From a virus: a DNA stretch of 64,000 bases. The position numbers and the translations under genes are program-made. The number at the start of each line of letters is the position of its first letter. Positions within the stretch are counted from its first letter, which is position 1. Shown here one piece after another: positions 28,236-54,053 of this stretch. The stretch spans positions 1 to 64,000 of the IMG/VR virus record IMGVR_UViG_3300045738_001212, one strand, 5' to 3'. The notes beneath the pieces are model-generated. The model ran no database searches. It saw nothing but the letters and a program-made list of their open reading frames with translations, and was not told the DNA's origin.

Positions 28236-28511
28236 CTTACATAGATATACACTTAGATAGGTAGTCTACGAAAAGCCTTCTTAGTTATGCGAACCAATTG
28301 AAATGCAAATAAAAATTTTAAAAAAGATACCCCGTCGGGATTTTTCGAACCCTAATGCAACTGAAAGGTTTGGTCTCGGGGAGACTGAAAAATAGCACCC
28401 CCCTACCGCCTGACAATTTCCATTTAGAAAAAATTTGCAATATTGGGGCCGGGGGGAATTGCTTTTTTTATTTTTCTTGACGAGTTCCCGTTTCTGTGTT
28501 ATATTGTACCC

Positions 28512-29580: not shown

Positions 29581-29626
29581 AAAAGTAGGGTGACGCAAGG
29601 AGAGACCACTAACCTTGCGCCACCCT
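29581..29626 (-). terminator. terminator-like hairpin with 12-nt loop UUAGUGGUCUCU
   Basis: 14-bp stem with G-U on minus strand followed by ACUUUU. Confidence 0.75.
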
Positions 29627-29635
29627 GTTCTATGA

Positions 29636-30019
29636 CTACCACCAGCACGAGTAAACTATCTTCCACCCGCCAGCTAGTGCCTTCCTAGCCTTCTGGATGA
29701 ATTCGATGTCGTCATCCTTGTAGCCGTATTCACCTTCATAATCCTCATAGGAATCATTGCCGAAGAAGAAGCCTCCTGTCTCTGGTAGTTCCTTGTCTAG
29801 GATAGCTTGCTCTAGGCTGTCCAAATCCTCCTCGTCAATAGTTACATCAACAAGATTGAATTCTCCATCGCCACCCTTGCTGCGCCAAAGCTCTTCCATC
29901 CACCCTTGCAAGCGATTATGCTTGCGCCAGTAGTGAAGCTCCGTCTTGGTGATGGTGTCGGTGCGTGTGTCTGAATCGTAGTCAGACTTAACTTGATATG
30001 CTGTTTGGTCGAGTCCCAT
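29636..30019 (-). CDS. conserved phage protein (MGLD...YWRK.N.L..W...YSCWW type)
   Basis: recognisable motif; SD AGGAGA. Confidence 0.75.
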   Translation of the reverse strand: MGLDQTAYQVKSDYDSDTRTDTITKTELHYWRKHNRLQGWMEELWRSKGGDGEFNLVDVTIDEEDLDSLEQAILDKELPETGGFFFGNDSYEDYEGEYGYKDDDIEFIQKARKALAGGWKIVYSCWW

Positions 30020-30028
30020 AGTAATCTC

Positions 30029-30954
30029 CTAGTTAGTGGTTGCGGTTGGTAGTGGTGGTAGTGCCAGCGGTTTAGGTAGCGGTGGCAACGGTGGGAGGCT
30101 GGCCATGTAAGCCAATCTCTCTACTTCAGCGAATGAAATACTGAATTGCTTCTTTAAGATAGGCAGCGCAGCCTTAATCTTGTAGAGGCGATAGGCTTCA
30201 GCCTTTGCCTCCTCGTGGGTTGCGCCTTCCTTCTTTCGGGCTTTGATGTGGTTGGTTACTTCAGCAGCCTTGACTGCGTTGCGAGCTTGGTAGGTTTTGT
30301 ATGTCTTCATTGGTAAGAGTATGCCTGAATTTGGTGTTGGTGTCAAGTTTATTCCTATATGGTTACCGCTGAGAGGCCGTTGGCTAGGATGGGCCGCTTG
30401 TGCAACGGCGCGAACGAATTGATGCGATGCCAGTTGAATCGGCGGATGACGTTTTCATAACCGTCACGGCATACCGTAGCGACAAAGCCCCCGTTGCCCG
30501 AAAAGAAGAATTCGTCGGGCGTGAGGATGAGATAGTTTTCAGTCTTGCCGTTGGCCTTGGTGTAGTTGAGTTCGAATGCTTTCTTGGTGTATGTCATGGT
30601 TATAATATACCATGAAAGAGCCTCGTTGTCAAGCAGTTTCTCACAGTGTTTCAATGTAAATCCCTGTTGCCAGTATCACCACGAATGACACGATGCCAAT
30701 AATGAGAACAAAATAAATATCTCTGAAATCGTCTTTCATAATCCCTCCTTGATATAATTATGCGTTCCCATCTTTTCAATAAAATGAGTTTCAAGCATAT
30801 CAAATTGATGCATCGCCGTGCCTCTGTTGTTGGCCCATTCTAACGCCCTAAAGAGTGAACAAGCTTTTTGATAAGTCTCACACACTTGAGCCGCTGCTAT
30901 GTTTTGATGCACTGACGTTGGCACTACGTTTTGTTCTTTTCCGTTTTTGGTCAT
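30029..30954 (-). other. small early genes 30029-30310, 30355-30597, 30736-30954 (starts corrected by promoter position)
   Basis: leaderless promoters / translational coupling. Confidence 0.7.
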
Positions 30955-31064
30955 AAAGGTTTCTTGTGTTTAGGTTTCCGAGTGTAAGAGCCTTTGCCCT
31001 TCTTAACGCGATGCTCACGGGACGCGCTGCCCATGTAGCCCTCTTTGTTTTTCCGCGCTTTCAT
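30951..31064 (-). CDS. 37-aa ArfA-like ribosome-rescue peptide (not in ORF track): MKARKNKEGYMGSASREHRVKKGKGSYTRKPKHKKPL
   Basis: KKGKGSYxRKxKH motif as in ArfA; own leaderless promoter; ATGA coupling to next gene. Confidence 0.75.
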   Translation of the reverse strand: MKARKNKEGYMGSASREHRVKKGKGSYTRKPKHKKPL

Positions 31065-31082
31065 AGTGATAATATACCACTG

Positions 31083-31189
31083 AAACGTCTCACTGTCAAG
31101 GATAAACCACCCAACCCGCCGCGTAGCGGTGGGTTGTTTTAGCTTGCACTGAGATAAAAAATCTGCGGGCGTTTTTCTGACTCACTGTC
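31083..31189. repeat. about 107-bp exact direct repeat (second copy about 33151-33257) containing promoter -35 box, hairpin and 35-bp dyad
   Basis: aaacgtctcactgtcaaggataaaccacc...ctgactcactgtc identical in both. Confidence 0.92.
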
Positions 31190-31194
31190 AAGCC

Positions 31195-31617
31195 TTAAAC
31201 TACAGCCCAGCACCGATGCCCCACGAAACAATACGCTGATTTGGCGATGGGACGTTTCTCTTTTACCGTCACAAAAGTCTTATGCTTGTAAGGGTCGTAA
31301 GTCACCTCCACCCACTTGCCATCCACAGCCATCGTCTTCGCTTGCTTTAGCATCTCTTGAGGGGAAATCATATTTACAACAGGGCGATGCCCGGTATACG
31401 TAATCCACTTACCGCGCACGTAGGCGTGTACGTTCTTACGCATCTCATCCCGGACGCGATCATTGCCCTTGGCACCAACGACGAATTCAACATCATGCAA
31501 CAGAATACCTCTCACATGTTTGGCCACTAGGCCATCGTGTCGGGTACGCACCGAGTAAACCCGATCCGTCTTGTCTCCCCTGTGCAGGTTCCTGTAAACG
31601 TCTACCTTGCTTTTCAT
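31195..31617 (-). CDS. conserved phage protein (VYRNLH...KNVHAYV.G...YDPY type)
   Basis: recognisable motif. Confidence 0.7.
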   Translation of the reverse strand: MKSKVDVYRNLHRGDKTDRVYSVRTRHDGLVAKHVRGILLHDVEFVVGAKGNDRVRDEMRKNVHAYVRGKWITYTGHRPVVNMISPQEMLKQAKTMAVDGKWVEVTYDPYKHKTFVTVKEKRPIAKSAYCFVGHRCWAVV

Positions 31618-31997
31618 TAGTCTACGTTCTCCATGTCGTCGTGCATCATATTCTCAAGCTTGCCAATCTTGTCATCGCTTAACCCCGCTCGCCAATCATC
31701 ATCATCATATTCATTCTCCTCCTTCTCCCAGCGGTATCCCTCTGGCGGCATGATGTGCCACAAATCATTCGCCCTTGCCTCGCCTATGATGTAAGGCTTA
31801 ATCTCTTCCATTGAAACGTCGCCCCATTCATTCTCAACACCCATAACGTAGCCGAAGGCTATGCCGTTTTCGTCTGGCTCTCCCAGATAATACTCCCACA
31901 TATTCCGAAGGATGATGTGCTGGTGAACGGTGAACGCGCTGATGGGTAAGGTGCGGTTGTTTATGGGGACTATGTTTCTAGGTTTTGTAGGTTTCAT
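31617..31997 (-). CDS. DUF2958-like protein, leaderless
   Basis: WEYY...FGYVMG.E.EWGDVS.EEI. Confidence 0.55.
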   Translation of the reverse strand: MKPTKPRNIVPINNRTLPISAFTVHQHIILRNMWEYYLGEPDENGIAFGYVMGVENEWGDVSMEEIKPYIIGEARANDLWHIMPPEGYRWEKEENEYDDDDWRAGLSDDKIGKLENMMHDDMENVD

Positions 31998-32861
31998 TAG
32001 GTATAATGTAACACTTTAGAGGCCGCTTGTCAAGCGGTTTTTTGAGTTTCGACGCCGAACATCTTCTCACCGCGACCCACCCACGAAGGGCCGTCAACGA
32101 GCCACGACGCTGTGCCAGTATCCGACAAGCAAGCTACCGTCGGGCTTTCAATTTCCCCTTCCGTTAAGCCACAGGCGGCCTTGAAGCGGTCAACGTCAAA
32201 ACGCGGGTTGTCCTTGGCAAACTGGGTTGCGGCTAGTGTAGCCAGCACAGCGGCGGGTGTGCCGTTGTTGGCTGCGTTGATGAGGGCGGCGACGAATTCG
32301 AAGTGTTCTTTTGTTGTTTTCATTAGGTATAGTCTAACGCTTTAGAGGCCGCTTGTCAAGCTTTTTATCTGCATCGTTCAATGTCCTTTTCTCTTTTTAG
32401 CTCCGCCTCTTCTTCGTGGGTGAAAAGTCTGCCGAGGGTGATTGACTCAATCTCAAGGCCGATCTTGCTACCGAAATACATATCCCGCACGTTAGCGAAT
32501 GAGGTTCCGGTTGCGGCCCAGCGTGTGCCATTGGTTGTGGTTACGATAAAATCGGTTGTTTCTTTTATGTCTTTCATTAGGTATAGTCTAACACTTTAGA
32601 GACCGATTGTCAAGGATAAAGTTGTCCCCCCGCGCAAGCGGGGGGGGGTTAGCCTAGACCCCCCTGTGCGCTTCCACACAGGCCACCTCTTTAGGGAAGC
32701 CCTTGCGGAGTAGTTCAAGATTGTTGCTGTCAGCCTTACGAATAAGGCGCAACAGTTTAGCGGTGAACCAACTACCCTCTCCACAGAGGATGTTGCCGAT
32801 GTTGTTTTTGTCGTAGTTACTCATTGGGTATACTGTAACACTTTAGAGGCCGCCTGTCAAG
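31993..32861 (-). repeat. four near-identical promoter+ATG cassettes (CTTGACA.GCGGCCTCTAAAGTGTTA...TATACCTAATG)
   Basis: upstream of ATGs at 31997, 32323, 32577, 32824. Confidence 0.9.
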
Positions 32862-33431
32862 CACCAAGTGCGTCCCACGGGTCTACGGGTGCGTTGGGTT
32901 CCTCGTTCCGTTTCATCCAAGGGGTGCGAAGTAACTCCTCCCATTCGCTTGAGCCAACAGCGTCATGATACGCAGCGCGTACTAGCGCGTGGTGGCCGCT
33001 CATTCTCCAATCCCAATCGTTCATATCCTTTGACTTGATAGTGCTGGTCTTGCCCTCTGGTGAGACATAGGTGAACACATGGTTGTTGGTCTTGCGGTTA
33101 GAGTAGAGTAGAAACTTTTCTTTACCTTCCATACGTATAATGTACCACGCAAACGTCTCACTGTCAAGGATAAACCACCCAACCCGCCGCGTAGCGGTGG
33201 GTTGTTTTAGCTTGCACTGAGATAAAAAATCTGCGGGCGTTTTTCTGACTCACTGTCGCATGGCCACGCTTACCACGCATGGGGCCACACGCCGACTATT
33301 TCGCTATTTGGGTGATCGCCTAAAGCGTGAGTCTTGGCTACCGTAAGGGTCATGCCCCAGTAAGAGGCTTCGTAATAGCTGCCCGATGTGAAATTCCGGG
33401 TTCTGATTGTCCAGTTAGATGTTTCGCTCAT
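32030..33431 (-). other. single-gene leaderless units: 32030-32323 (DNPRFD motif), 32365-32577, 32654-32824 (56 aa, unlisted), 32857-33132, 33270-33431 (53 aa, unlisted)
   Basis: each has its own promoter immediately before ATG. Confidence 0.75.
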
Positions 33432-33691
33432 GGGTATAATGTAACACGAAAAACGCTACCTGTCAAGGAAAAACAGTGAGGCTCAAAAAATGCTGCCGCT
33501 TTTTCAACTCACAATCAATTAGGTCAATTAATCACGTTTATATAGGGTAATTGTTTCGCAAGGCACCCCAGTAAAACAGATATTTAGATGATAAGAATTT
33601 CCTATTTACCCCTGATTTCTCCGATGAGAAATACCCCCTTTTTAAGAAATTATATGTTGACAGATAGGCTATTTGGTGGTATAGTATTCTT

Positions 33692-33818
33692 GTTGGTGGC
33701 AATGGTAGCCCTCGCTGAATAAGTGAGTGCCCTCGCAGGAAAGCCCCTAGTGGAAGCGCGACGAAGCTAGACGGTGATACGATACTGGAGGGGTGAGGTT
33801 CAATCCCTCGCACCAATA
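33692..33818 (+). ncRNA. tRNA-like (tRNA-mimic) structured RNA, about 125 nt
   Basis: promoter TTGACA(33657)-N17-TATAGT; acceptor stem GTTGGTG/CACCAAT; D-loop-like AATGGTA; T arm TGAGG-TTCAATC-CCTCG. Confidence 0.75.
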
Positions 33819-33825
33819 ACAATTT

Positions 33826-34023
33826 ATGATGAACGACAAATGTAAATGTGGAGGTTGTGGTGCGCCCGTAGCGTGGGAGTACGACGCCCCTTATCAGGAG
33901 TACCCCGGCGCGAAGGTGTGGGGCGGGGAATGGTTCGTCGAGTGCGAGAAATGCGGGTGGAGCGATGCCACCAAACAAGACTTGAGCCATTACTCCATAC
34001 GCGAGAACACGCGGGGGTGGTGA
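33826..34023 (+). CDS. small zinc-finger protein
   Basis: CGGC...CEKC; stop codon is the first triplet of a 35-bp dyad. Confidence 0.65.
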   Translation: MMNDKCKCGGCGAPVAWEYDAPYQEYPGAKVWGGEWFVECEKCGWSDATKQDLSHYSIRENTRGW

Positions 34024-34148
34024 GTTAAGAAAGCCCCCGCATTTTTTTCAACTCAGTGCAAGCCTTTTCTTTTGTCGATCACGAGTGATCGTCTAAATAG
34101 TTTGTCAATCATATTTCCACTATTTTGATCGTCTAAATTTGCTAAACG

Positions 34149-34179
34149 AAAAGCCCCCCCGCTTGCGCGGGAGGGCTTT
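34149..34179. terminator. intrinsic terminator after DUF932 gene, possibly bidirectional
   Basis: GC stem with GCAA loop flanked by A/T runs. Confidence 0.8.
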
Positions 34180-34199
34180 GGTTCTTCACCCCTTGGCTT

Positions 34200-35093
34200 T
34201 TAGTTCAGAGCCAGCTTGACCACTTCAGAGGGAACGGCCTTGACCAGCTTGTCAAGCTTGGCGGATTGCTCCGCAGCACCCCGCAGCTTCCGCAGCACCT
34301 TGGTGCTAACGGTGTTGGCGTACTCGAAACGCTCCCTGCTCACGTCATGGGTGAGGTGTTGGGTGGCTGCGTTGTAGAGTGTCCACAGATTGCGGGCTTC
34401 GTCTTCCTCGCGGGCGGGATTCTCCCACACCTTGAGGATGCCGTCCTTGACCACGTTAGACAGCACCTTCGAGCGGTTCAACTGGTCGAGGATGTTGCGC
34501 CCCTGCTCTTGCGTGATGTCACGCTCGCCCAAGATGCTGAAGCCTTGCGCGGCTTCGTTGAAGCTTCCGGTGGCTCTGTCGAGAGCGTCCCCGATAAAGC
34601 TAATCTCTACCGCTGCGGTATGACGGCGATTCATGCCGAACTCATTCTCCAAGGTGGTCATGCCGTTGAGGCAAACCAGCCGCACCATGCCAAGCGCGAA
34701 GGATACGCGCAGGGAACGGTCAAAGGAGTTTTGCAGGGTGAGGCGCATTCCTAATTCCATGCCCTTCACTCTGTCCTCGCGCCGTGTGGCGATGGCCGTC
34801 TCATTCGCGAAGTCGTACTGCGCGAACATCTTCTCGCCGCGACCAGTCACGACAATGTGGCGGCTTGTGGGAACCATCCCGCGAGACTCAAAAGCCTCTT
34901 CGGCATTGGCAATCAAATCACCGTTTTGCACAAAGCCGTACTGCTCCGTGCCCCAACCTAATTCCTCGCCCGTATCGGTACGGACGTGCGCGTATACGCG
35001 GGAGCGGTTGCTGTTGGGAAGGGTAAGGGGGACACGCTCCACGGTGTAATCGAAAGCGGTGGGGTCGGAGGTTTGAATAGTGTTTCTGGCCAT
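34200..35093 (-). CDS. DUF932/DUF945-family protein
   Basis: VRTDT...Y..VQN, NSFD.S, RLVCLNGM, RHT, NLWTLYNAAT. Confidence 0.85.
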   Translation of the reverse strand: MARNTIQTSDPTAFDYTVERVPLTLPNSNRSRVYAHVRTDTGEELGWGTEQYGFVQNGDLIANAEEAFESRGMVPTSRHIVVTGRGEKMFAQYDFANETAIATRREDRVKGMELGMRLTLQNSFDRSLRVSFALGMVRLVCLNGMTTLENEFGMNRRHTAAVEISFIGDALDRATGSFNEAAQGFSILGERDITQEQGRNILDQLNRSKVLSNVVKDGILKVWENPAREEDEARNLWTLYNAATQHLTHDVSRERFEYANTVSTKVLRKLRGAAEQSAKLDKLVKAVPSEVVKLALN

Positions 35094-35315
35094 GATTTGT
35101 AGGTCTTTCTTGGTTAAGGGTTATCTCTCACTCACTACAAAGAGTGTATCACCAATCCACTATCCTGTCAAACCTTTTTTTCTGTCATTGGATACAAACC
35201 CGCCGCGCAGCGGTGGGTTTGGGCTTGCACTGAGTTAAAAAATGTGCGGGCGTTTTTACGACTCATTCCCTCCGTTAACCCATCCCTCCGGGCTGGGTTT
35301 ATATTTACACGCTAT

Positions 35316-37603
35316 TTAACTCTCATTCTTTTGCTTATTGCTAAACGGCGAAATCGACTCGGCTCCGCGCAAGTGATGCCGGATACCTAGTTCCACCTTA
35401 TGTTCAGCAGTATAGTCCCAATCGTCTTGGTCAAGGCTATACTCTGATTGGTATGCTGCCTCCATGTTGAAATTGAAATCACATAGAGTCGTGTCGTCAG
35501 TAAGGTTATGCTTCTGCACATACTCACTCAATGCCTCTGCGATAATCTTTATACGCAAGGGGTCGCCTTCAAGTATCATCTCATGCTCTTGTATCTTCAT
35601 TTATCCTCCAATCTCTCGTGTTCTAAAACATCATACTTATTAGCGTCGTCGAGGGTATAACCGTATTCCAGTTGACAGTCGTCTCCATAGTCTCCCTCCC
35701 CACTCATTGCCGTCTTGATAGCGTCGGCCTCATCCTCTGCCTCTACCACGATGTAGCAGTAGTGAACCTCTGGAACCTTAACTGTGAATGTTTTCATTTA
35801 TCCTCCAATCTCTTAAACTTGTCTACTATGATATCACAAACATCTTCCGTAATGGATTGCTTCTCTTCGTCTGTGAACGTGAATGGTGGGGTGTAGCCCT
35901 CCATGTATGTAATCACATCTTCCTGTAGCTGCTCCTTCACCTCTTTAATGACAAGGGATTGCGTGTGCTGAAATGGTTTGCGTAATGTTCTCATGCTTAA
36001 TCCTCCACTCCGTAAATTTCTTCGTAGTGTTCAATAATCTCATGGTCGTCTATGTTATCCATGCCAACGCAACCTTCCCAAAGGACTTGTTTCAAATCCT
36101 CGTCTGAAAAGCCCTCCCATTCAGATTCAAAAAGACGCTCGCGCATCGCTTGAATTTCTTTATCTGTATATTCTTTTACTGTGTCAGTCATAATTTAATC
36201 CTCCAGTAGATGGTCTTTGGCTGCTTCAATTACCTCTTGGTAATACTCGTTGTCCATTGGCTTAAAGCCTTCGAGACAATCTGAAATGGCGCATAGGCCA
36301 TCGACTATTCTGCTTCTGTCCACCATTCTCCCATTGTGGCTAATTGGGCCTTCATCTTGTTTCATGCTGTGATGTACTCTCCTTCCTCATTGAATACGAG
36401 TTCGAGATGTTTCAACTCCCAAGCGTTAGGTGCGTCCTTGAACCATTGGGTGTCCATGAACTTAATCCATGCGCGAGCGTTAGCGTGGGTGTAGGAAATG
36501 CCATCTGCAAACATCACATAGCTCTCATCCCATGTGTTGTAGAAGGTGGCCGTGTAGGCTTTCATTGTAGGTTTCATTACAAGTAATATACCACACCGGA
36601 GCGTGGTTGTCAAGGACTATTCGCTTAACGAGATTTGGTGGTCGCTCTCGGGAATGTTTACCTTTGAGATGTTTTCCTCCCACCTTTGATTCTCAAACAT
36701 GTTGGCGACGGCTTTTGCTACATCTTCTTTTGAAACGTCAGAGAAATCCCTTTTAGGTGTGCTGCCTAATACCTCACCCCAAGGGACATTGATTCTCCAC
36801 CCGACTGCTAAACACTCATGCCATACACCCTTCACGCAAACGTAATCACCCACCATCATTGAGCGAACTTCGAGCTTCTTAAAGAGGGTACACTCCCGAC
36901 CACTCCCGTTGTTCCAATCCTCCCACACCGCGTCAAGGATGTCTGGGTCTGTGTACTCACGCCCCTTGCTGTCCTCTACTGGGTAGTCCAACCAGAACTT
37001 CTTACATTGCTTCTCGGTCATGTCCCGATATTGAATTTTAACTCTTATCATAATCGTTTGCTCCGTGGGTGTAGGTTTCGCTCATAGATATAATGTAACA
37101 CACAAGGTACTACTTGTCAAGAGGTTTCTTCTTAATCATATCCAGTAACTTCTTATCGCACACGCGGGGGTGCTTTCCCCACTTCTCAACTACGTCTGCC
37201 ACCTGCTCACCCTTCTCATAGTCGGGTAGCTTAACAACGTACATGGAGTCACGGTCTCTTAACGTCTCATTGTATACCACGATCATCGGGTCGTCTGAAA
37301 GACGAGCCGATTGAATAGCCTCCTCCTCGGAGTTGGCATCTACGATATAGGTAGCCGAGTGCATTTCAGTTGTTATGACTTTATACTTCATGCCCAGTCC
37401 CCCTGTGAGTCTCCATCTATACCGTGCCTTTGGCATAGCTCATCCCATTCTGTCTCCTCGTAGCGTGACTGCCTTGATTGAGTGTCAAGTGCTACTTCTT
37501 TTAAGTGATTGGTAAGTTCTCCTACATCCTCGAATTGGATGCGAACGATCTTCTCCATTGCCTTGTCTAGTGCTGCTCCATGTAGGTTTCTTGTAGGTTT
37601 CAT
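35316..37603 (-). other. run of small acidic early genes: 35316-35600, 35597-35797, 35794-35994, 35997-36191, 36362-36577, 36617-37051 (RSMMVGD, YodL-like motif), 37110-37391, 37388-37603
   Basis: coupled stops/starts with GGAGGA embedded in ...ED(K)* C-termini. Confidence 0.7.
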
Positions 37604-37705
37604 TACAAAGACTATACCCTACTTCTACCCCCGTGTCAATATCAAAGTTTTTTAAAGTTTTTAATTGCACTGAGTTAAGAAATGTGCCCCCGCTTTTTTA
37701 ACTCA

Positions 37706-38242
37706 CTACCTTGTGATGGGTTTGCTGCACTGTTGACATCGATATTTGCGCCCACGCCTAATCCTATTATGTATTGTCGTGGATATCATATGAGGTCTAT
37801 CAATACAGCCACAGGTGTATTTCCACCGTCTCTGTTTCTTAGTGGATGAGTTCGTGGTATCATAGTTGTGACACCTATCAGGACGTAAGCCAAGCTTACG
37901 CATTACGTTCTTCCATTCGCGCCCGTGCGCCGTGCCACCGAATAGGCAATCTTTAATTAGGTGCGCGTACTCATGGCCAAGCGTTTGCTTTATAAAATGC
38001 TCGGTGTTTTCTTTTAAGAGAATGTAGTTTATTCGTATTTCGTTTTTATTAGAGTTTGCCGTTCCGGCCACCCTGCCTTTCAAGTTAAAGCGCAGCCTTG
38101 TCTCTGGCATACTATGCTTAAACTTTTTCTCTGTGTACTCGTGCAACTCCCTTATTCTATCCTCACACAAACGCACAAGGTCAGCCGTCCTTGGCGCGGC
38201 CAGCCCTGATTCCGTCTCTGTGAAATGTTCTATGATGATCAT
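37706..38242 (-). CDS. SprT-family zinc metalloprotease
   Basis: AGTA, HEYAH, HGREWK, YTCGC, YRCQQC. Confidence 0.9.
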   Translation of the reverse strand: MIIIEHFTETESGLAAPRTADLVRLCEDRIRELHEYTEKKFKHSMPETRLRFNLKGRVAGTANSNKNEIRINYILLKENTEHFIKQTLGHEYAHLIKDCLFGGTAHGREWKNVMRKLGLRPDRCHNYDTTNSSTKKQRRWKYTCGCIDRPHMISTTIHNRIRRGRKYRCQQCSKPITR

Positions 38243-38300
38243 TGTTTTCTAGATATCCAAATGTAGCCGAGCCAAAGTATAACCGCTATGAGTACCCACA

Positions 38301-39098: not shown

Positions 39099-39135
39099 GG
39101 TTATAATATAGCAGGTTTCGCTGTGTCTGTCAAGG

Positions 39136-40403
39136 TTAAACGCCTATAAAATGCGCTGCGGTTTTCTTCGTCCAAAAGCCGTCGGCATCTATATTCCCAC
39201 CGTTACTCGCTCGCCCACCATTGCCCACGGGAATGGGAGCAACACTATACTCGCCCATGTTTGAATGTTTAATGAAGGGTTCGGAAACTAAACTGTTGAA
39301 CCTTAAACGCGCAAGTAGTCGAGCGTATCGCCTAATCTTTTCCTTGAGCTTGTTTCCGAATTTGCCTAGTAGGTAGGCGAGGGATGAGTTGTAAAGATAC
39401 TTCTTATAGCTTTCCTCTGTCGTCCAGATGTAAGCGAACCTCTCAGACATATGAATCAACTCGCCGTTGTAGGCTCCGTGGTTGTACCAACTGAAATCTT
39501 GTGATTCGATTTCCTTGGGGTCATTAGATTGGATACCAACGGCCCAGCTTGAGCCTTGGGGACAATAGAACAGTGAGGGTTTCTTTCTAGGTTTCATATG
39601 TATAATGTAGCATAAAAAAGTCCCCCTGTCAAGGGGGACTTTCAGTGTTAGGCCGAGGCTAAACCTTTGCCGTAGTCGATTAAGTCGAGGTCGTGCGTTG
39701 CCGCAGCAGTCGCGTCAGTGATGTCCGAGAATTCGAATATCTCAATCGCTGGCAAGTTGTTGCCGTACTTTCCCTCTGGGAGGTCTGAATACTTTGGCAC
39801 TACGGCCTCGCGGAGAAGGGCGATCTTCTTTAGGTCATCTCTGATGAGTTGGGCCTCCATTCCGTCATTGCCGAGATTATGCTCGTCGATTCTTGTCTGT
39901 GCTTCTGCGACATCTTTTTCAAGTCGCACGATATGTTTGCCGAAGGCAATCTCTAGTTTGTTATTCATCTAGAACAATGTACCATCGATTACCCTGTTTG
40001 TCAATTAAAATCGATTAAAACTTTTTAAAATTTTCCGCTTGTAGTGAGTGAAAAAATGTGCCGCCGTTTTCTAAACTCATTGCAAGAAAAAAAGCCCCCC
40101 CGAAGGGGAGCCTCTCATGAACGGTTATTTAACCTTTATTTATTTGCTTATTATTTACGGCTTATTTATTTGCCAATTATTTAATTAATATTTATTTGCT
40201 AATTATTTAATCATTTCATCGCTTACATCGTCCTCTACTATTGCCCAGTCTACTTCCCATGAGCCTTCTACATATGTTCCATTGTCTGGTAAGCCTATGC
40301 CCATGTCCGACTCTGCTATCTCAGCAGCGTGTTGGCGCGTGTCCGACTTAACAGTTACCCAACCATACATCTGCCAAGCTACTGGTACTTTGTATTCTTT
40401 CAT
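39136..40403 (-). other. hypothetical early genes 39136-39597, 39648-39968, 40203-40403
   Basis: ORFs with leaderless promoters or coupling. Confidence 0.7.
40087..40113 (-). terminator. intrinsic terminator (UUCG loop, U7)
   Basis: ggctcccc-ttcg-gggggc-ttttttt on minus strand. Confidence 0.75.
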
Positions 40404-41372: not shown

Positions 41373-41410
41373 GTATAAAGCATACCATTAATCTAGTATG
41401 CTGTCAAGGA

Positions 41411-41915
41411 CTAATTTCCTTTCTCGGCTCGACGAATAACCTCTTCCATAACGTCTCTCATTACGCGCTGGTCGGCTTTACTGTGATAAACGTGATGACC
41501 ACTAACGACATCAAAATTATTAATAATAATATTCTTCTTCCACGGATTGCATTCATCTACCACTTCATTCCATGCGGTTTCATATCTTGCCGCCATGCCT
41601 GTTGGTGGTGGGGGTGGGAGTTTCATCTTATCTTTTATTACACTCATTTTACCACTTCTCCTCTACTTCTACGTGAGTCTTATCGTTCTCTTCGAAGTCG
41701 GTGACTTTCACGTTTACGTTTTCTTTGGTGTTATCTGAAACAGCAGTTATATCAGGAGTGACAACCCCGAGGTCTACGGCCCACTTGCGTGAGACTTTAA
41801 CCACCATGCTGGGGCGAAGAAGCTCGTTCAACTGAGCAAGAGTGATATTGCAAAATGAGTAGGAACCTTTTTTGCGTCCACTACCAACTTTCCTCTTTTT
41901 CTTTTTATCGGCCAT
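41411..41915 (-). other. two small hypothetical genes (41411-41647, 41649-41915)
   Basis: ORF track; leaderless promoter at 41915. Confidence 0.65.
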
Positions 41916-42056
41916 ATAAGAATAATAACCGAAATCTACTCCCCTGTCAAGATTTTTTTAAAGAAAAGAACAAGCATAAAAACAATAATACTAATAAATA
42001 AAAATGAGATGTATGCTATTGTCAACACCCCTATATAGCAGCCCACCACTATCTCT

Positions 42057-42395
42057 TTAAGCGTCCTCATCGAATCTGTATTTCAAGTCATTGTATAGTA
42101 TGCGCGAAAGTGTATTGCCGAACGCTAATACTTGCGTCTCGGTAAGCTCTGGGAAGTAAGCGTGAGCAGTCTCATGGATGACCGTGTTAAGTATCACTTG
42201 ATTGGAGCGATGAGGGTTTATCAAGATGGTCGTAGGCTCTTTTCCTATCACAGGATAGAAGCAGACACCATCGCAATCCTCTCCCCACCTGCGCTTGTCC
42301 GGCTTCCTGAAGACGAATTCATAGGGAACGCCTTTGCAATTTTTAAATTTTAAATAATTTTTCAATTCCACCCCTAAGCTAAAATAGTCTAACAC
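42057..42395 (-). CDS. small HExxH metallopeptidase-like protein
   Basis: NTVIHETAH. Confidence 0.7.
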   Translation of the reverse strand: MLDYFSLGVELKNYLKFKNCKGVPYEFVFRKPDKRRWGEDCDGVCFYPVIGKEPTTILINPHRSNQVILNTVIHETAHAYFPELTETQVLAFGNTLSRILYNDLKYRFDEDA

Positions 42396-42538
42396 GATAC
42401 AGGATAATCCTGAATAAGTCTAATAAGATAGGATATTCCTAAATAACCCCAAAAAAGACTAAAAGAACACGTCTATATTTTACCATATATTTCGCCTTTT
42501 TGCAAGCATTATTTCAGGCGTTTAGAAAAACTTGGAGC

Positions 42539-42659
42539 AAAGAAAGACCCCCCGCTACAAGAACTTAAGCAGCGGGGGGTCGGGATATCCCCCTGAATCC
42601 CGCTGTGAGGCAGGACTCCAACCAGTTGGGTCAGGAGGTGGTCCGGTGAACCAACTGTA
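42539..42659 (-). ncRNA. candidate small RNA B with anti-SD CACCUCC(U) hairpin and terminator
   Basis: TTAGAA-N17-TATAAT promoter; three hairpins; U-tract. Confidence 0.7.
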
Positions 42660-42695
42660 TAAGTATTATACGATAGGAGGTGTTTTGTTCTAATG

Positions 42696-42760
42696 AAAAA
42701 AGCCCCTGACCGAAGTCAGAGGCAGGTGAGATGAATGTCCTAGACTGGAAGTCTTCGGAG
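42696..42760 (-). ncRNA. candidate small RNA A with unpaired CAUUCAUCUCACCU and UUCG terminator
   Basis: TTAGAA-N17-TATAAT promoter; hairpin, linker, terminator. Confidence 0.7.
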
Positions 42761-42834
42761 CGATATTATAATTTTAAATTAAATTTATTCTAATTTTTTT
42801 TACTGCTTGATAGCAGCGGTGAATGAATTAAAGA

Positions 42835-43189
42835 AGTTGTTGTAATCCTTTTAATTAGTCAGCACACCAGTGATGTTTTAATCCTCTATATTTGGAATCA
42901 ATAAATTTGCTATTTTTTCTCCCTTTCAGACCGTGTTTTAATCCTCTAATACTTAAATGGAGTCATGTTGTTGTAATCCTCTCACCCTATTACTCTCTGT
43001 GTTTTAATCCTCTATATTTGGAGTCAATAAATTTGCTGTTTTTTTATCGGCGTTTGGTTATGTGTTTTAATCCTCTAATACTTAAATTAAATGGCTTTCA
43101 GGGCGATGTTTTAATCCTCACAAAATACATTCCCGAGCTTCATGTGTTTTAATCCTCGTGCTTAAAGCGGCGAATGTTGTAATCCACTA
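42835..43189 (-). repeat. array of nine GAGGATTAMAACA-type repeats downstream of a sigma70 promoter (candidate ncRNA)
   Basis: TTGACT(43223)-N17-TATACT; no long ORF on the transcribed strand; internal ~85-bp duplication. Confidence 0.8.
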
Positions 43190-43314
43190 CAAGAAGTATA
43201 CCACCAGCCTTATTTCGAGTCAAGAAGATTTATGGGGAAAAATTAATTAATATATTTAAACTTTTTAAAATTTGCGGGGGCCAGATTTGTTTTGACTTTG
43301 TATCAGATTTATGA

Positions 43315-43569
43315 TTACCTTTTCATACGTCGATAGTTCTTCGCCCAAATGACATTGCACATTTCAGTTGCAGTTTGATCTATTCTGGTTTCAGGCCAAG
43401 CAGGATTATAGATGTGGAGCATTTCATGAATAAGAGTATTTAAATATTGTTTAGATTTTAATCTGCCATCTATTTCAATTTTATTTTCTCCTACCCACGC
43501 TAAACCTAGAGCCTTCTCCCTACCGAGAGGCCGCTCTACTACTTCAATTTTAGTCTTTCTTCTAGGCAT
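43315..43569 (-). CDS. small HExxH metallopeptidase-like protein, related to 42057-42395
   Basis: NTLIHEMLH; GTGTAAT motif upstream. Confidence 0.75.
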   Translation of the reverse strand: MPRRKTKIEVVERPLGREKALGLAWVGENKIEIDGRLKSKQYLNTLIHEMLHIYNPAWPETRIDQTATEMCNVIWAKNYRRMKR

Positions 43570-43993
43570 ATGGGTAATTACACAATGCTACCAACTTTAT
43601 TATAGGTATATTTTGGAGAATATATAAAAAGCGGTCACCCATTTTTTTAAATTTTAATAAACAAATTAACCACTCTCTTCTTTGTATACTATGCCCTTTA
43701 GACCTCTTTTACTAGGTTTTCGGGGGGAAAGTGGGGCAAAGGTGTAGGTTTCTGTGGAGTAGGGGGATTGTAGGCAAGTAGTAGGACAGCGTAAACCAAA
43801 CAAAAGCCTTTTGCAATGCAAATAAACAAAAAAATGCGTTGGACGAAACAATTACAGGCAATGTTGTCTAAATCATCCCTCCTGCTTAACCCCTATCAAG
43901 ACGAGAAGCATCTCAATAGTAACAGGCATTGTTTCTGAGTCCGATGCCAACGCTCACCGTCGATTAGTTAGGGATAATAGTTGCGACAAAAAG

Positions 43994-46900
43994 TTATTTA
44001 ACCAACAAGGCTACTTCCCCCCAATTTACCTTACAAGAACCCTGCACCATCTCATCGACAATGGTATGGCAGTCTCCTATCCCTTCGCATTCACAACCGC
44101 TTTGCTGGACTAGCTCCGCTGCGTATTCGATGTTATTAGCCTTCACGGCTATCGTGCCTTTCACGACCCAAGTAACAGGTACTTCGTATTTCATTTCGTT
44201 TGGCCTAATGTCTTTTATCCTTATCATTAATCTATATGTGGCGCACCTAGTAACGCCCAGCATATTCTAAACCCAAGGAAGCATATCACTATTATAACTA
44301 TATCACCAATCATGTTTATCCTTTCTTTTGTTGTTGTCTTCGTCCGTACTGATGCCATAAATCTCCGATTTTGCGTTTTGCCCATTCGCTCTTGCCAACT
44401 AGTTGTGTTGTAGTCCTCTTAGTCCTCTTTCGCTCGATAAACTCTTTAAACTCTTTAAGGCGTAGCCGCGATGGTACATTAGCATCACCGTTCTTGACGA
44501 TGTTAGCCATGCGATTGTACAGTTCGTCTAGTATCTCTTTATCAGTCATTTCATTATAGGAAGCATTGTTGTAATCCTCATTTTACCGTTTTTTTTGCTG
44601 AGTCCTTCTTTGTTGAGTGCTATGTTCCAAAATGGAACTAACCTCTTCCTCGGCAAGTTGTTTGGGTATGTGTTAGGTGTCGTAATCCTCTTGTCGTGTG
44701 TTGTGCGTGTCAGTGTCTTTTCTTGTTGTAATCCTCTCAAATCCATCGGGTTGGTATGTGCCGCAATCCTCATGTACTCAGGGAGCTTTTTTGTTGTAGT
44801 CCTCTCCCTTGTAATCTTCGGCGGTAACGCTCTTGTACGCAAGGTTATTCGCCTCTTCCCTGTGCAACAGGTCATACATCTTTGGACTCTCACTGGTGGC
44901 GCAGCCGCCAGCAAACAATAATATCAATATAATAATAACTTTCATTTTAATTTAGCTCGGCCTATGGCCTGAATCTGTCTCTTTAAGGTGTTTTCCCCAA
45001 GCTTCCATTTGCTGCTCTTCAGTTAATTCAAAGACGGCGGCGATCATTCGCCTCTCGTCACTCAAGCTCGACTTATCTTTAAAATACTCTTCTCTCCATT
45101 TTAGCCACTCTTCGTAGTTCATTTTCTCACTTGTGCTTTTGTTTTCCACCTGCGGTGAATTCATTTTTCCCCTCCACAATGTCTGGCCTCTCCCTTTCAA
45201 TCATGTCTATGATGTCTTGGCAACGGTCAAAGTATTGGTCTATGCTAAAAGTCGATGACCTTGGCGAATTGGGGCATCTATCGTAGATTGCTTGCAATAG
45301 TTCGTAATTTCTCATCGCTCTATCCTTTCAAAGTGCTTGTCTACAATGTCGAGTAAATCAACCTCTATTCCCCTGACGTACTCAAAATCAGCCATCGGCA
45401 AGTCGCTCAAAAGAGTAGCGAAATACTTTTCAACATCTTCGTGAATGTCTGCCTTAACGTCTAGTATTTTGTATCCCATTATGCGTCCTCCCCGTAAAAG
45501 ACTTTCCATTCGCTGTCGAATACCTCATTGTCGTAGTGGGCTAGACCCTCTTCTATCTTGTCCACCGCGAACTCGTACAGGTCTTTGTCGTCCCATGAGT
45601 CAACCATGTCTCGCGCCAACTTCTCCCTGTTCTCATCATTGTTGGTGATGAGTTGGCCTCCGTTTGGTAATTGTAGTTTCCACATATTGTTATCCTTTCT
45701 TAATTTAGTTCGTGTTGAAAACATTCTAGTTCCCCGCCATTTTTCATCTTGAGTACATAGATTCGGTGCTTACCCCTCCTGCCATGCTTATCAATTACCG
45801 TCCCGTATCCTGAGCATATGCCTTCGTCGGGGTCTTTCCAGTACACTTCGTCTCCAATTTCAAATACCATTAGTCTTCCTCCCTCATTACGTCATTCCTG
45901 TAATCTTGCATTTGGAAAACTGCCTCCATGACTGCATCATGGCATTTTTCATCGTCAGCTTCTAGTGCTTCAGCAGAATAATTTCTCGCTGTTTCCAATA
46001 GTATGCCCATTGCTTCTCTATTAGTCATAATTTTACCTTTCTTTTTTAAATAATTTTTTAATGCTGCTTCCGCCTCATAGAAGGTGGAACTATCCGTGTT
46101 GTTGTGCTTCATTCCTCCCTCATTAGATCATTTGAGTAGTCTTGCAGTTGATCAATCGCTTCGAGAATTTCTTCTTCTTCTTCGTAATCGTCTGCGTGAC
46201 GATTCGCTATCTTCAATACCAACTCCATTGCTTCTTTGTCGCTCATGCTTTTACCTTTCTTTTTGCGCTTCATTCTTCTCGCGCTTTTTTATATCTCTTT
46301 GGTTATATCTTGTCTGCGCTTCGGATGGCATATCTTTTTTGACTGCCGCGACTGCCGCTTCGCCTTCCTCATCTGTCGGCCAAGGGTAACCGCGCCCAAT
46401 TTTTCTTTTACTTTTTTTCTCCACCAAGGCGGGACTTTTGACAGGCGGCAAATCTCCCTCTTCGTAGGTATCAAAGCCCGATATGGCCTCCATATACTCC
46501 TGCTCCGTAAAAAGCTCTCTAATGCGCTTCTGGAGGGCATTAATGACCATCTGCTTCTCGTTCTTAAGGCAGTCGTACCAATCCTCGTACTCACTATTGG
46601 GAACTGCGAACGCTATATCCATTGCGTGATTGTATTTCTTTTCTTTCACTGTTTACCTTTCTTGTTGTTGTCTCCTAGTGTTTTAATCCTCTTATACTTA
46701 TGATCTGCTGTTATGTTTTAATCCTCTGTCTTCGCCTGTTAAAACCCATCGTATGTACTCATACATTAGCTTGCTAAAGCTGATGCCGTTACAACTTACT
46801 CGGCTTACTCGATTTTTAAAAAATTTAAATTCACCGTGCTTCATTATACATCCCACTCATTCATTGCCTCTTCCAACACTTGCTCAAAGCTTTTACTATG

Positions 46901-49104
46901 CGCGTTTGCTTCTGCTGCTGCGTTTAGCGCACTCCACATCACCTCCGCTTCAAGCCCCCAAGGACGAGCCGCTGCAAGAGCCTGTTCGACTAATTGAATC
47001 TTTGATGGCCTTGGGTTGGTTGAGTCTATGTCTTTGAGTTTCATGTTTATTCTGCCGCCCATCCTGCGAAAAGATAAAGGTCATCTCCATCTATGTCGCC
47101 GCATTTAGCGGCCCAAACTTTTTCCCACTTCTCGGTATTGTCCCACGCTTCTTCTTCCCAATCCGCGACACATTTTTTACACCATTCGTCCTCAGTCATA
47201 TCCTTAAAGTGCTTATCAATTTGCTTGAAACCGAAACCATTCCCTACGTTGACTGTAAACTTGACAGACCCTTCGCGCTCGCGAGCAAGAAGTCCCTCAA
47301 GCTCTTTAGTCCTATCCAAATAGCCGCTGGTAGTTGAAATGGTTCCGTTATAGCCATTACTCCCGTGCTGGCTCGTAGCGTAAGTTACAGCGGTGTCATA
47401 AGCTTCTCTCATCGTTTCTCCTACTGCTCTGTCTGATAGGTTATGCGCTCCCATTTTATTCTCTTTCTTCTAAGGGTTGACTGTTTTTAATTCTCTCCGC
47501 TTGTAGTTGTAGCCACAACTTTGCTTCTTCACCGGACTTGAAAGGCCCGAAATCATCTATGTACCAAGTGGTGTTGTCTTCAGCACTAGTGAACTTACTA
47601 AATGTAAGGTCGTCGGTACTCATTCTTTTGGTTCCAGCATCATTGCCATATCCTTAATCCACTTCATCGCTTCGTCTCTTGACTCGAAATTGGCAGGAAA
47701 GATATATTGTACCTCATTATCTCCCCACACCCATTGGCCCACCACCCACTTCTCTTTGCCATTGGGCCACTTGCCAAACTTGAATGCTTTAACATATTTT
47801 TCTAATACTTCCATAATGCTCCCTCCTTTAATCCTTCCATTAGGTGATCTTCCTTTACCCGCATCTGTTCAGTTGAATCATACTCATTCTCAAAATCATC
47901 TGACTCATTGACAACTTCCCAACTGTCCTTGTCCTTCTCATAGTAGATTGCTATGTTCTGGTGAAGGAATCCTCGTTGAAGGTAGCCCTCGAAATGTTCC
48001 ATGCCATCTGACCCAATATCGGCTAACTCTTTTAAGTGTTCGATAGATTTTACTTTTAATCCTCTCATAATTTATCCTTGCGCTAATAATACCATTGATT
48101 TAATCCATACCAGTCCAAACAATGAGGTAATGAGATATTGTGTGCGTAGTTTCATTTAATCCTCCTAGCTTTCACTTCAAGGATTTCGTACCCCATTGCC
48201 GCCGCTTGGTGTTTATAAGCCTCGTAGACTGCCTCTACGCTCCTAAACGCCCCCTTCGTTAACGTCCACAAGGGGTTGTCACACCTTACGGGTTCGCTAT
48301 ACTTAATGTGCATCCAATACTGTTTCATAATCTAATCCTCCATTTGTGATTTTGTTTTCCATTTTAGGAGAGGACAACAATTTTAATCTGCGGTTCGGAC
48401 AGGCCAACTTTCTTTTCTAGTTTGGCAAGACCCTTGCGATACTGTTCTTCGTCCATCCATGTGAAATGTGTAAACTCGGTCGGAATTTTTGATTTTGTTT
48501 TGTTTTCTAGTTTTGCTTTCATTTTGCACCTCCTATGACTACTGGAGGTCTTTCCCGAAATTCATCTATGTAAACGTCGAGTCCTTCTGAACAAAATTCG
48601 TGGACGTAACTCCAATCCATCTTGTCGTTTATGCGCCGTGCAGCCCACTCCCACTCTTCGTCTGTCCATTCAGACTTGCCAGTGTCCTCGTTAGGTTGAC
48701 CGTGGCCAAACATATCCTTTGTCCACCAAGCAATGACTATGCTTTCTTCTGGGTCTAGGTCGCTGAGATATTTAATTGCTTCTTTCGCTGTCACGCGGAT
48801 TTACCTTTCTTCTCTTGGGATTAAAAAAATTACCTTTCTTATCCCTGTGGGTTTATTACCTTGTTCGCCAAACCCGACTAGTCTCATCATTTACCTTGCG
48901 GATGGTGACGCCGAACTCGTCTAAGGTTTTGGACTGTTGATACTTTGCAGCGGAGTAACAGTTCCCTCTTAACTCCGAGTCAAACTCAAACGATTCTCCG
49001 ACTTGTAAAGCCGAAACCGCTTTCGCTATGCTGCTAGTATGTGTTTCTGGCATTGGTATGCCCCTCTGTACTTGGTACTTGTCTAGTTGTTTCATAACAT
49101 TCAT
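43994..49104 (-). other. long run of small hypothetical genes (43994-44194, 44316-44549, 44778-44945 lipoprotein unlisted, 45127-45315, 45312-45479, 45479-45724, 45870-46112, 46251-46649, 46844-47062, 47047-47454, 47620-47814, 47802-48068, 48519-48794, 48856-49104)
   Basis: tightly packed co-oriented ORFs with SD-like leaders. Confidence 0.65.
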
Positions 49105-49130
49105 AATAATTTTTTAAAATTTTAAGTTGT

Positions 49131-49174
49131 AGAGGACACCGAGAGAAGGAGGTAGAAGACTCTCGATGTCCTCT
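49131..49174 (-). terminator. 3' hairpin of rIIB-like gene with anti-SD loop UCUUCUACCUCCUU
   Basis: 15-bp stem with G-U on minus strand. Confidence 0.75.
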
Positions 49175-49185
49175 GTTGGGCAACC

Positions 49186-49971
49186 CTATTCTTGGGCTGA
49201 AATCTCTCCCGTCTCGTAATCGTACTCGCCTTCAAAGTAGGTATCTACCACTGGCTCATCCAAAGCCCTTGAGAACACTCCTACGACCTTGTAAGTAGTT
49301 GTCCTGAGTTTCTGACAATCGCAATCCTTCGGGACGCTCACAACGTCAGCGGGATCAATCTCAACTATCACAACATTACTTTGATCGCCACCGAAACTTT
49401 GTGCGTACTCCAAGCTACCCGCATGGAATCCATAAGAACAACCAATGTCGGAATCATCGCAAACAGCGTTGCGAGTCATGGAGTTTACGTCTCCGACCTT
49501 GTTGGAGAATTTACCAGAGTAATGGTCAGTCCAACTACGATTAACGCTCTTGTAGGCAAGGAACTTGCCGTCTGGCGTGAAGGGCATATTCTTGTGCTTC
49601 AAGAATGTGTACAACTCGTTTACCGAGCGGCGTGATGGGTTCACCATCAGACGGTCAAGGAAACGCATGAGTGGTTTGAAATTGCCCTGTATTTGAACGA
49701 GGTCAAGAATACGCTTTGCAATCACGTTGTCGATTTTCTCATCCTTATAACGTAGGATACCAGCGATAAAGTGAATGTTTCCTTCGGAGTGTTTGAGAAT
49801 TGTTGCGGGTATGTCCATAGCCCTGCGAACATTCTCCCAATCTTCCGCCGCAATCGCAGCGCGAGCGGCTTTCCAGTTTGGGTGGTCACTGTTTATCACA
49901 AACATACGATCATCTAGATGTACCGTGAGTGAGTCAGGGGTAAGCACATATTGTTTATCGGCCATTAACAT
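49186..49971 (-). CDS. rIIB: rIIB-like protein
   Basis: NPS...ELY.FL, TPDGKFLAYK, CSYGFH, IDPADVVSVP.D. Confidence 0.88.
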   Translation of the reverse strand: MLMADKQYVLTPDSLTVHLDDRMFVINSDHPNWKAARAAIAAEDWENVRRAMDIPATILKHSEGNIHFIAGILRYKDEKIDNVIAKRILDLVQIQGNFKPLMRFLDRLMVNPSRRSVNELYTFLKHKNMPFTPDGKFLAYKSVNRSWTDHYSGKFSNKVGDVNSMTRNAVCDDSDIGCSYGFHAGSLEYAQSFGGDQSNVVIVEIDPADVVSVPKDCDCQKLRTTTYKVVGVFSRALDEPVVDTYFEGEYDYETGEISAQE

Positions 49972-49974
49972 AAT

Positions 49975-50238
49975 TTAATCCTCCTTGATTTCCCAATTTT
50001 TGAGTTCTGGTTTTAGTTTAATATCGGTTCCAACTTTGCCGTCAAAACTGTCATACACGACCCAACCGATATGCTTTCTGTTTATCTCAGTTCCGTGAGC
50101 GAGAACCTCGCCAAAACTTTCGATATCAAAGTCGCTTGAATCCTTTTCGTTATTCCCCCATGCGAGTCCCACTAGAGTGCAATCATCTCCGATTGGCTTA
50201 GTGAAGCAAATCTCAGCGGTTGGGGGTTTAACTTTCAT
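49975..50238 (-). CDS. hypothetical protein, leaderless, co-transcribed with rIIB
   Basis: TTGACT-N17-TATACT-N8-ATG. Confidence 0.7.
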   Translation of the reverse strand: MKVKPPTAEICFTKPIGDDCTLVGLAWGNNEKDSSDFDIESFGEVLAHGTEINRKHIGWVVYDSFDGKVGTDIKLKPELKNWEIKED

Positions 50239-51617: not shown

Positions 51618-51651
51618 ATTTTTTTTAAAATTTTAATTGCGTCATCCAACT

Positions 51652-51733
51652 AAAAGAAGGAGACGGGGGAAGCAACCTACTCGCTCCCCCCGCCTCTAGA
51701 ATGCCCCACCGGAAACCTACTAACGATGAGGCA
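51652..51733 (-). terminator. tandem 3' hairpins of rIIA-like gene with AGUAGGUU loops; second is a terminator
   Basis: 10- and 14-bp stems with G-U pairs on minus strand, U-rich tail. Confidence 0.8.
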
Positions 51734-53923: not shown

Positions 53924-54053
53924 AGGTTTCAGTTTCTTTTGTTGGTAGGTTAATCTCTAATGCTATTAAGAGTATACTCTCGTTCTCTTTTCGAGTCAAG
54001 AGTTTTTTTTCATTTTAAAGTTTTTATGAGTGTTCATAAGTGTAATTCTTTGT

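Follow-up and report, generated by a model that had tools for sequence, protein, structure and literature searches.

Does the 3' end of a phage messenger RNA (mRNA) gate the translation of that same message? The question is raised by the window studied here, the first 64 kb (64,000 nucleotides, nt) of the 157,997-base-pair (bp) single-contig genome (43% G+C) of an uncultured marine phage, IMG/VR record IMGVR_UViG_3300045738_001212. In a region where all genes lie on the minus strand, three genes are followed by hairpins with large loops that can be matched to the initiation region of the gene they follow. These are an rIIA gene (51740-53923, minus strand, 727 amino acids, aa; phrog_612, E=5.5e-113), an rIIB-like gene (49186-49971, minus strand, 261 aa; phrog_609, E=4e-65) and a 127-aa gene of unknown function (29636-30019, minus strand; phrog_7971). 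An earlier note on this DNA had drawn from them a general rule, by which the loops of 3' hairpins are complementary to the initiation region of their own gene. Many full-length transcripts would then fold back and be silenced or circularised, only nascent or processed RNA being translated. This tempting generalisation from three hairpins survives neither a genome-wide nor a comparative test. With a probability of about 70%, no general rule exists and three different things were lumped together: the match at the 127-aa gene is probably due to chance, that at rIIB is complementarity to a generic Shine-Dalgarno (SD) motif, and true pairing potential is confined to rIIA.

Two conserved elements emerge from the comparison. 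The first is a tandem-hairpin module located after rIIA, the loops of which change together with an SD-less start across dozens of marine phage lineages. The second is the rIIB hairpin, which displays a sequence complementary to the SD motif (anti-SD). Both adjoin rII, a classic yet poorly understood phage locus, and merit experiments. No close nucleotide relative was found among deposited phages, where protein-level matches do not exceed 41% identity; the relatives used here (loci numbered with an L) are present in marine metagenomes and in IMG/VR.

The rIIA hairpin loops and the rIIA start

Folding and comparison with relatives show two hairpins after rIIA on the minus strand. Hairpin 1 (51702-51733) carries the loop UUAGUAGGUUUC; hairpin 2 (51660-51696) has GAGUAGGUU at its apex and is followed by a U-rich tail. 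At the other end of the gene, the rIIA leader (53923-53951, minus strand) is devoid of an SD motif and contains the loop complement twice, as AACCUAC (53951-53945) and as GAAACCUA (53930-53923), the latter abutting the AUG. Thus, the G/U-rich loops (UAGUAGGUUUC) are complementary to A/C-rich sites located at about -13 to +3 of the SD-less start, where the ribosome binds. In the clade A relatives, both loops are identical from phage to phage while the stems vary, and the leader copies read, for instance, AAACCUACUAA and GAAACCUAUG. The consensus structure of the tandem hairpins combines compensatory pairs with invariant loops.

The two-hairpin layout is retained in more distant lineages, where loop and leader motifs change together. 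The motif pairs include GAAACCUAC/GUAGGUUUC, GAAACCCUAC/GUAGGGUUUC (L058), GAAAUCCUAC/GUAGGAUUUC (L161), ACCUACUACUACA/UGUAGUGGUGGGU (L060 group) and several others, and in L058 and L161 matched insertions are found in both partners. Complementarity was quantified over 64 distinct rIIA loci using gapless helix scores, in place of long-window RNA duplex folding, which gave over-extended, uninformative structures. A cognate signal at p<0.05 was obtained for 15 loci against 3.2 expected (Kolmogorov-Smirnov, KS, p=2e-9). Moreover, the mean helix score of rIIA loops with their own start was 19.7, compared with 17.1±0.36 for permuted pairs (p<=0.0002).

It could be argued that all these hairpins, including those of rIIA, are merely terminators or 3' stabilisers, and that complementarity is a by-product of composition, G/U-rich sequences following stop codons and A/C-rich ones preceding starts. 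The leaders are indeed A/C-rich, and in many lineages the hairpins that follow rIIB and the 127-aa gene again have large loops rich in U/C or G/U. However, the rIIA signal stays strong under shuffles that keep composition and under cross-locus permutations, single-base insertions are matched in the two partners (L058, L161), and the loops are invariant while the stems change. Composition as the whole explanation is therefore extremely improbable. Comparative evidence for an RNA-RNA interaction between the rIIA loops and the rIIA start is strong. Direct observation covers the structures, how far these are conserved and the complementarity statistics; from these we infer that the loops would base-pair with the start region of their own gene and that this would limit initiation or alter the stability of the mRNA. 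The pairing idea of the earlier note is thus supported for rIIA, which that note cited only in passing and where loop and start are complementary beyond chance and co-change, while its two other examples, treated below, did not hold up.

Complementarity across the genome and the hairpin of the 127-aa gene

Gene starts were called genome-wide using a home-made caller, and strong intergenic hairpins were collected over the whole genome. For each of 23 hairpins, the best Watson-Crick run between the loop and the start region of its own gene was ranked against 224 other start regions. The lowest rank p values belonged to the hairpin of the 127-aa gene (0.004), the two rIIA hairpins (0.022 and 0.031) and the rIIB hairpin (0.076). 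In the same test, five other large-loop hairpins (95455-95500, 108674-108721, 34011, 67921-67962 and 78775-78809) gave no cognate signal. An unbiased scan was then applied to every gene with a 3' intergenic stretch of 35 nt or more (n=111). The cognate ranks were uniform (KS p=0.23), with three genes below 0.05 against 5.5 expected, and complementarity to the cognate start was no better than to non-cognate ones. The rule is therefore not general. The top match of the scan (89093-89380, 10 nt) was discounted, as it is a near-palindromic AAAUUUAGCU belonging to a doubtfully called gene and not to a hairpin loop. The 127-aa gene ranked second (p=0.013), a level that about 1.4 of the 111 genes are expected to reach. 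It should be kept in mind that the home-made calls put some wrong start regions into this test, which lowers its power and weighs against the conclusion.

The contrast previously drawn between these hairpins and ordinary terminators is real. Inspection of the region's hairpins shows terminators with UUCG, UGAC or GCAA tetraloops and U-tracts (40096-40110, 42702-42723, 39622-39636 and 34144-34184). The large-loop hairpins have loops of 9-16 nt on long stems, against 3-5 nt in intrinsic terminators. Rfam covariance models gave no relevant match in window positions 29000-54500 or in L042, and the tRNA models of ARAGORN found no tRNA at these hairpins. U/C- or U/G-rich loops of 12-16 nt (for example UUUUUCUUUGUUUC and UCUUUGGUUGUUUCG) recur in the 3' hairpins of several genes across marine phages (L074, L079, L002, L112, L115 and L057-L063). 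Such recurrent large-loop hairpins may form a distinct class of terminators or stabilisers, or may be the site of a protein recognising single-stranded pyrimidines.

The hairpin following the 127-aa gene (29587-29626, minus strand) has a 13-bp stem, a 12-nt loop UUAGUGGUCUCU and a tail ACUUUUAAC, and folds at -28.8 kcal/mol. Within the loop, GUUAGUGGU (29613-29605) is the 9-nt Watson-Crick complement of ACCACUAAC (30032-30040, minus strand, read from 30040 to 30032), which corresponds to the last codons of the upstream open reading frame (ORF), immediately 5' of the SD motif AGGAG (30030-30026). The letters and positions of this pairing, reported earlier as lying upstream of the gene's SD, are correct, and the match is the best that the loop makes with any of the 225 initiation regions.

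Ten relatives of the gene, at 61-89% aa identity, were examined, and the hairpin persists in all ten with covarying stems. In seven of them (L002, L004, L068, L070, L071, L074 and L079), it stands at the same place, ahead of a gene coding for a Hydrolase_2 cell-wall hydrolase. The stems have an invariant AAGG/CCUU top and compensatory changes lower down (pairs 5, 6 and 10), and the hairpin is followed by a conserved YUUUUAA tail. The loops of the window and its relatives are unrelated to one another (UUAGUGGUCUCU, GCUUGGCGGCU, GCUAGGGACAUC, UCACCAAGGAAGUA, UUUUUCUUUGUUUC, UUCGGGGAUGUC and others). Since the stem covaries and the loop is hypervariable, it is the structure that is selected and not the sequence of the loop. 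Correspondingly, complementarity between loop and start is neither kept nor co-changing in these ten relatives. The longest run reaches 9 nt in the window. In L004 it measures 7 nt and involves another site, in L079 it also measures 7 nt but falls in the stem and not in the loop, and in the others it does not exceed 6 nt. The L004 match was considered as a compensatory change and rejected: L070 has a near-identical loop in which the two central bases differ (GGGACAUCCC versus GGGAUGUCCC) and shows no match, so that the L004 run is treated as chance.

As the loop evolves freely, the 9-nt match is itself probably due to chance. The example probably does not stand as a case of self-pairing, and the hairpin is, on comparative grounds, a conserved terminator-like intergenic stem-loop. 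The end of the upstream ORF, in which the target lies, is repetitive and rich in CCA/ACC, which eases a chance match. Two observations weigh on the other side. The match is still the single best of the 225 start regions for this loop. In addition, the loop resembles that of rIIA minus one base, and the target resembles the rIIA site minus the matching base. These matched deletions leave a small chance that the pairing is an innovation specific to the window.

The anti-SD loop of the rIIB hairpin

The rIIB hairpin (49131-49174, minus strand) lies 12 nt after the stop codon. It has a 15-bp stem and a 14-nt loop UCUUCUACCUCCUU (49146-49159), folds at -25.9 kcal/mol and is not followed by a U-tract. 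The loop ends in CCUCCUU, which is complementary to the rIIB SD motif AAGGAGG (49980-49986, minus strand, read from 49986 to 49980), located 8 nt before the ATG at 49971; letters and positions are again as first reported. In seven clade members at 67-84% aa identity, CCUCCUU is invariant in the 3' part of loops of 12-14 nt. In the corresponding alignment (A1), 98% of the cells are paired and compensatory changes occur in 6 of the 15 pairs, a result reached by none of 500 shuffles. The rIIB hairpin is thus a genuine, conserved RNA element with an anti-SD sequence on display in its loop.

Specificity for rIIB is another matter. Genome-wide, AAGGAGG occurs at 20 sites on sense strands, the SD motif of rIIB being one. 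Matches of at least 7 nt link the loop to 20 initiation regions, against a mean of 15.6 for shuffled loops, and these 20 regions match it as well as that of rIIB does. The loop could therefore pair with any strong SD motif. Across the clade members, no covariation between loop and start was found outside the SD core; the invariant UU of the loop faces AA in the window only, the relatives reading UUGGAGG or AUCGGAGG. In the L058/L001 lineage, the CUCCUU loop is kept and the rIIB leader has no SD motif; in L102, an anti-SD-like run lies partly in the loop and the rIIB start is also without SD. A survey of 87 distinct rIIB loci did not reveal cognate complementarity in excess of expectation (p<0.05 at 6 loci, where 4.4 would be expected; cross-locus permutation p=0.17). 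Nor, over the same loci, was an SD motif at the rIIB start associated with an anti-SD pentamer in the untranslated region at the 3' end (3'UTR) (6/19/13/49, odds ratio about 1.2). As an instance of own-gene pairing, the rIIB example accordingly reduces to complementarity with a generic SD motif.

Against so plain a conclusion, it should be noted that an invariant CCUCCUU needs some function and that its nearest partner is the strong SD motif of rIIB itself. Furthermore, in clade B (L048, L049, L050 and L054), the nucleotides immediately following the stop codon of rIIB (GUAGGGAAU) form an 8-9-nt complement to positions +4 to +12 of the same ORF (AUUCCCUAC), a possible cognate pairing unrelated to SD, as judged from the complement. 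Together, the invariance and the clade B complement make an occasional cognate pairing at rIIB possible.

In the window's clade, such a pairing could take the form known from the icaR mRNA: the anti-SD loop would pair with the strong SD motif of its own gene, lower initiation and perhaps create an RNase III substrate, without the pairing being specific to rIIB. All clade members have GGAGG(A) at the start and, some 800 nt further downstream, an open loop of 12-14 nt containing CCUCCUU, and the heptamer CCTCCTT is rare on sense strands, with only three copies genome-wide. Precedents exist. Anti-SD-like 8-mers hundreds of nt away from a ribosome-binding site pair with it and make the mRNA less stable, and genes are depleted of such 8-mers (PMC12697547); the UCCCCUG motif of the icaR 3'UTR acts so in cis (PMC3868564). 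On the other hand, covariation does not extend beyond the SD core, the L058 lineage carries the loop motif, and L102 an anti-SD-like run, without an rIIB SD, and the 87 loci show no association. Self-pairing of this kind is thus a tentative proposal, on the doubtful side.

The wider rule fares worse. In its favour, the three genes from which it was drawn occupy the lowest ranks among the 23 hairpins, cognate complementarity is family-wide in rIIA, L004 with its different loop has a 7-nt match elsewhere in its own start region, and clade B rIIB has its 8-9-nt cognate match. However, the genome-wide distribution is uniform, the five other large-loop hairpins are blank, in eight of the ten relatives the loop of the 127-aa gene hairpin does not match the start region of its gene, and the rIIB family has no cognate signal. 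That many transcripts of this phage silence themselves by folding back is, in view of this, very improbable.

Other explanations of the rIIB loop were considered and set aside. In L042 (5750-5770) and L046, the rIIB loop GGGGGUUCGAUUCCUCC resembles a tRNA T-arm, and in the more distant relatives L051 and L053 tRNA genes directly follow rIIB. A tRNA remnant or T-arm mimic (the L042 and L046 loops reading GGUUCGAUUCC) was rejected, because it has no ARAGORN or Rfam support and the motif is missing from the loop of the window. The AAGGAGG that the motif makes on the opposite strand is not retained as the SD of a plus-strand ORF, since the short ORF is not conserved and L039 has no ATG there. A protein site at the DNA level (GAAACCTAC, in either orientation) does not explain the exact placement of the motif in the loops of covarying stems. 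CCUCCUU also has the same letters as the 3' tail of 16S ribosomal RNA (rRNA). Mimicry of 16S rRNA by the loops (the anti-SD tail, and a helix-17-like GUUAAUACCUUU in a hairpin at genome positions 76497-76541) was dropped, since a 158-kb genome should share 12-mers with a 1.5-kb rRNA by chance alone. Outside the window, at about genome positions 99110-99140 on the minus strand, the leader of the gene 98837-99109 contains a local hairpin, immediately ahead of the ATG, in which CCUCCUU is paired with GGGAGG. It is a classic SD-sequestering arrangement and holds one of the three sense-strand copies of CCTCCTT.

Possible targets in trans and comparison with known systems

The loops may also have partners outside their own message. 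Besides the rIIA start, the loop of hairpin 1 finds 8-11-nt complements at +2 to +14 of five genes located behind TTGACA-N17-TAnnnT-N6-7-ATG promoters. About twenty near-consensus promoters of this type (TTGACA-N17-TAnnnT, 6-7 nt before the ATG) are found between window positions 30600 and 42000 on the minus strand, for example at 41407, 40004, 39632, 39133, 37639, 37120, 36613, 33466, 33167, 32860, 32613, 32359, 32033, 31099 and 30632. Because the promoters lie only 6-7 nt from the ATG, the early genes behind them appear to be leaderless. Roughly one third of them begin with AUG(AGC)GAAACCUAC; this tag, also written AUGAAACCUAC, marks mRNAs complementary to the loops. It occurs in different reading frames, and is therefore a tag at the nucleotide level. 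Several of the promoter and start cassettes look tandemly duplicated. In clade B, the hairpin 1 loop variant CGAGUAGGUUCCAU (L048:1884-1896, minus strand) complements 12-13 nt (13 in L048) of AUGGAACCUACUC (L048:4815-4838), with which a divergent 79-aa ORF starts, some 700 nt upstream of rIIA in L048. In L058, GUUUGGUU, the loop of hairpin 2, fits rIIA at +5 as well as the rIIB leader AACCAAAC.

Since the loops match the 5' ends of other early mRNAs, action in trans is a serious rival to self-silencing in cis. The rIIA 3'UTR, possibly processed to a stable two-hairpin RNA, would pair with the 5' ends of mostly leaderless early mRNAs carrying the AUG(AGC)GAAACCUAC start, the rIIB loop could titrate SD-led starts, and the rIIA start would be one case of a regulon. 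The five early genes, the 79-aa ORF of clade B and the double match of L058 speak for this possibility. However, the accumulation of a separate 3' RNA is hypothetical, and duplication of promoter and start cassettes could account for part of the tag's occurrence. Moreover, different lineages conserve both sites in the leader of rIIA itself, an observation that agrees with action in cis as well. A regulon in trans is thus rather unlikely, if worth entertaining. A broader proposal is that the rII transcripts end in complementary "anti-initiation" modules. The rIIA loops would be antisense to the AAACCUAC tag, present in the SD-less leader of rIIA and in about ten leaderless early mRNAs, while rIIB would display the anti-SD. 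Such an RNA system, working in cis and/or in trans, would gate both classes of early messages as rII transcripts accumulate; we hold it to be unlikely.

An A/T-rich element, UUAAAAUUUUAAAAAA, directly follows the rIIB hairpin (49110-49125, minus strand), and the same element follows the rIIA hairpins (51621-51636). As TTAAAATTTTAAAAAA, it is present in 12 copies with at most two mismatches in the window, against 0.45 expected; further copies lie at 54896-54911, 28310-28325 and elsewhere. Relatives retain it behind the hairpins of rIIA and rIIB alike, and it is sometimes found directly before the next ATG. Candidate roles are those of an UP element, of a binding site for ribosomal protein S1 or of a further promoter class. 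Two further features of the window may be mentioned. An array of GAGGAUUAAAACA repeats with unique spacers (42840-43160, minus strand) lies behind a TTGACT/TATACT promoter and ends at a large-loop hairpin (42546-42581) that has a U-tract. Two terminator hairpins of 25 nt and identical sequence (11-bp stem, GUA loop, UUUU tail) are found 2 kb apart on the plus strand, opposite to that of the genes, at 31112-31136 and 33180-33204, which suggests duplicated cassettes or bidirectional terminators.

How do these elements compare with known systems? As in intrinsic terminators, a GC-rich stem follows the stop codon, and the U-rich tails of the 127-aa gene hairpin and of rIIA hairpin 2 are conserved in relatives. 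In contrast, the loops are of 9-16 nt instead of 3-5, and the rIIB hairpin has an A/U-rich element in place of a U-tract. By the usual definition (GC-rich stem, loop of 3-8 nt, immediate U-tract), neither the 127-aa gene hairpin nor the rIIB hairpin is an intrinsic terminator: the former has a partial, conserved U-tract (ACUUUUAAC) and the latter none (ACAACUUAAAAU). Both are missing from the terminator scan because their loops are 12-14 nt long and loops of 3-8 nt were scanned.

In the hok/sok system, the 3' end of the full-length hok mRNA pairs with its 5' region (fbi/tac), and the message is translationally inert until its 3' end is trimmed by exonucleases. Gating by 3'-5' fold-back is what the earlier note had modelled on this case. 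However, hok pairs linear terminal segments, and neither a processing signal nor a toxin context was seen in the phage. In the OxyS-fhlA interaction, two hairpin loops of one RNA kiss two short sites flanking the start codon. The two rIIA loops could pair likewise with the two sites of the rIIA leader, although OxyS is a separate, trans-acting small RNA whereas the rIIA loops belong to the 3'UTR of the same transcript.

The closest known mechanisms include the 5'/3'-UTR pairing of hbs (PMC5737220) and that of icaR in Staphylococcus aureus, where a pyrimidine-rich, anti-SD-like 3'UTR motif, UCCCCUG, pairs with the SD of its own mRNA, blocks initiation and creates a substrate for RNase III (PMC3868564). 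The layout of the rIIB loop CCUCCUU facing AAGGAGG is the same. The phage motif differs in that a long conserved hairpin carries it in its apical loop, that the pairing is predicted and not specific to its own gene, and that one lineage has no SD. From its sequence, icaR-type self-pairing of rIIB is plausible in the window's clade. In a massively parallel reporter assay performed in Bacillus subtilis, exposed anti-SD-like 8-mers located hundreds of nt downstream paired with the ribosome-binding site, and such 8-mers are depleted from genes (PMC12697547). This reporter work suggests that pairing of this kind could be common. CCTCCTT is rare on sense strands in the phage too. However, the assay dealt with synthetic substitutions in one host, whereas the anti-SD described here is natural and has been conserved instead of depleted, implying a use. 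With respect to all these systems, what is new is the phage context, the presentation of the pairing sequences in tandem hairpin loops and an A/C-rich target that is not an SD motif.

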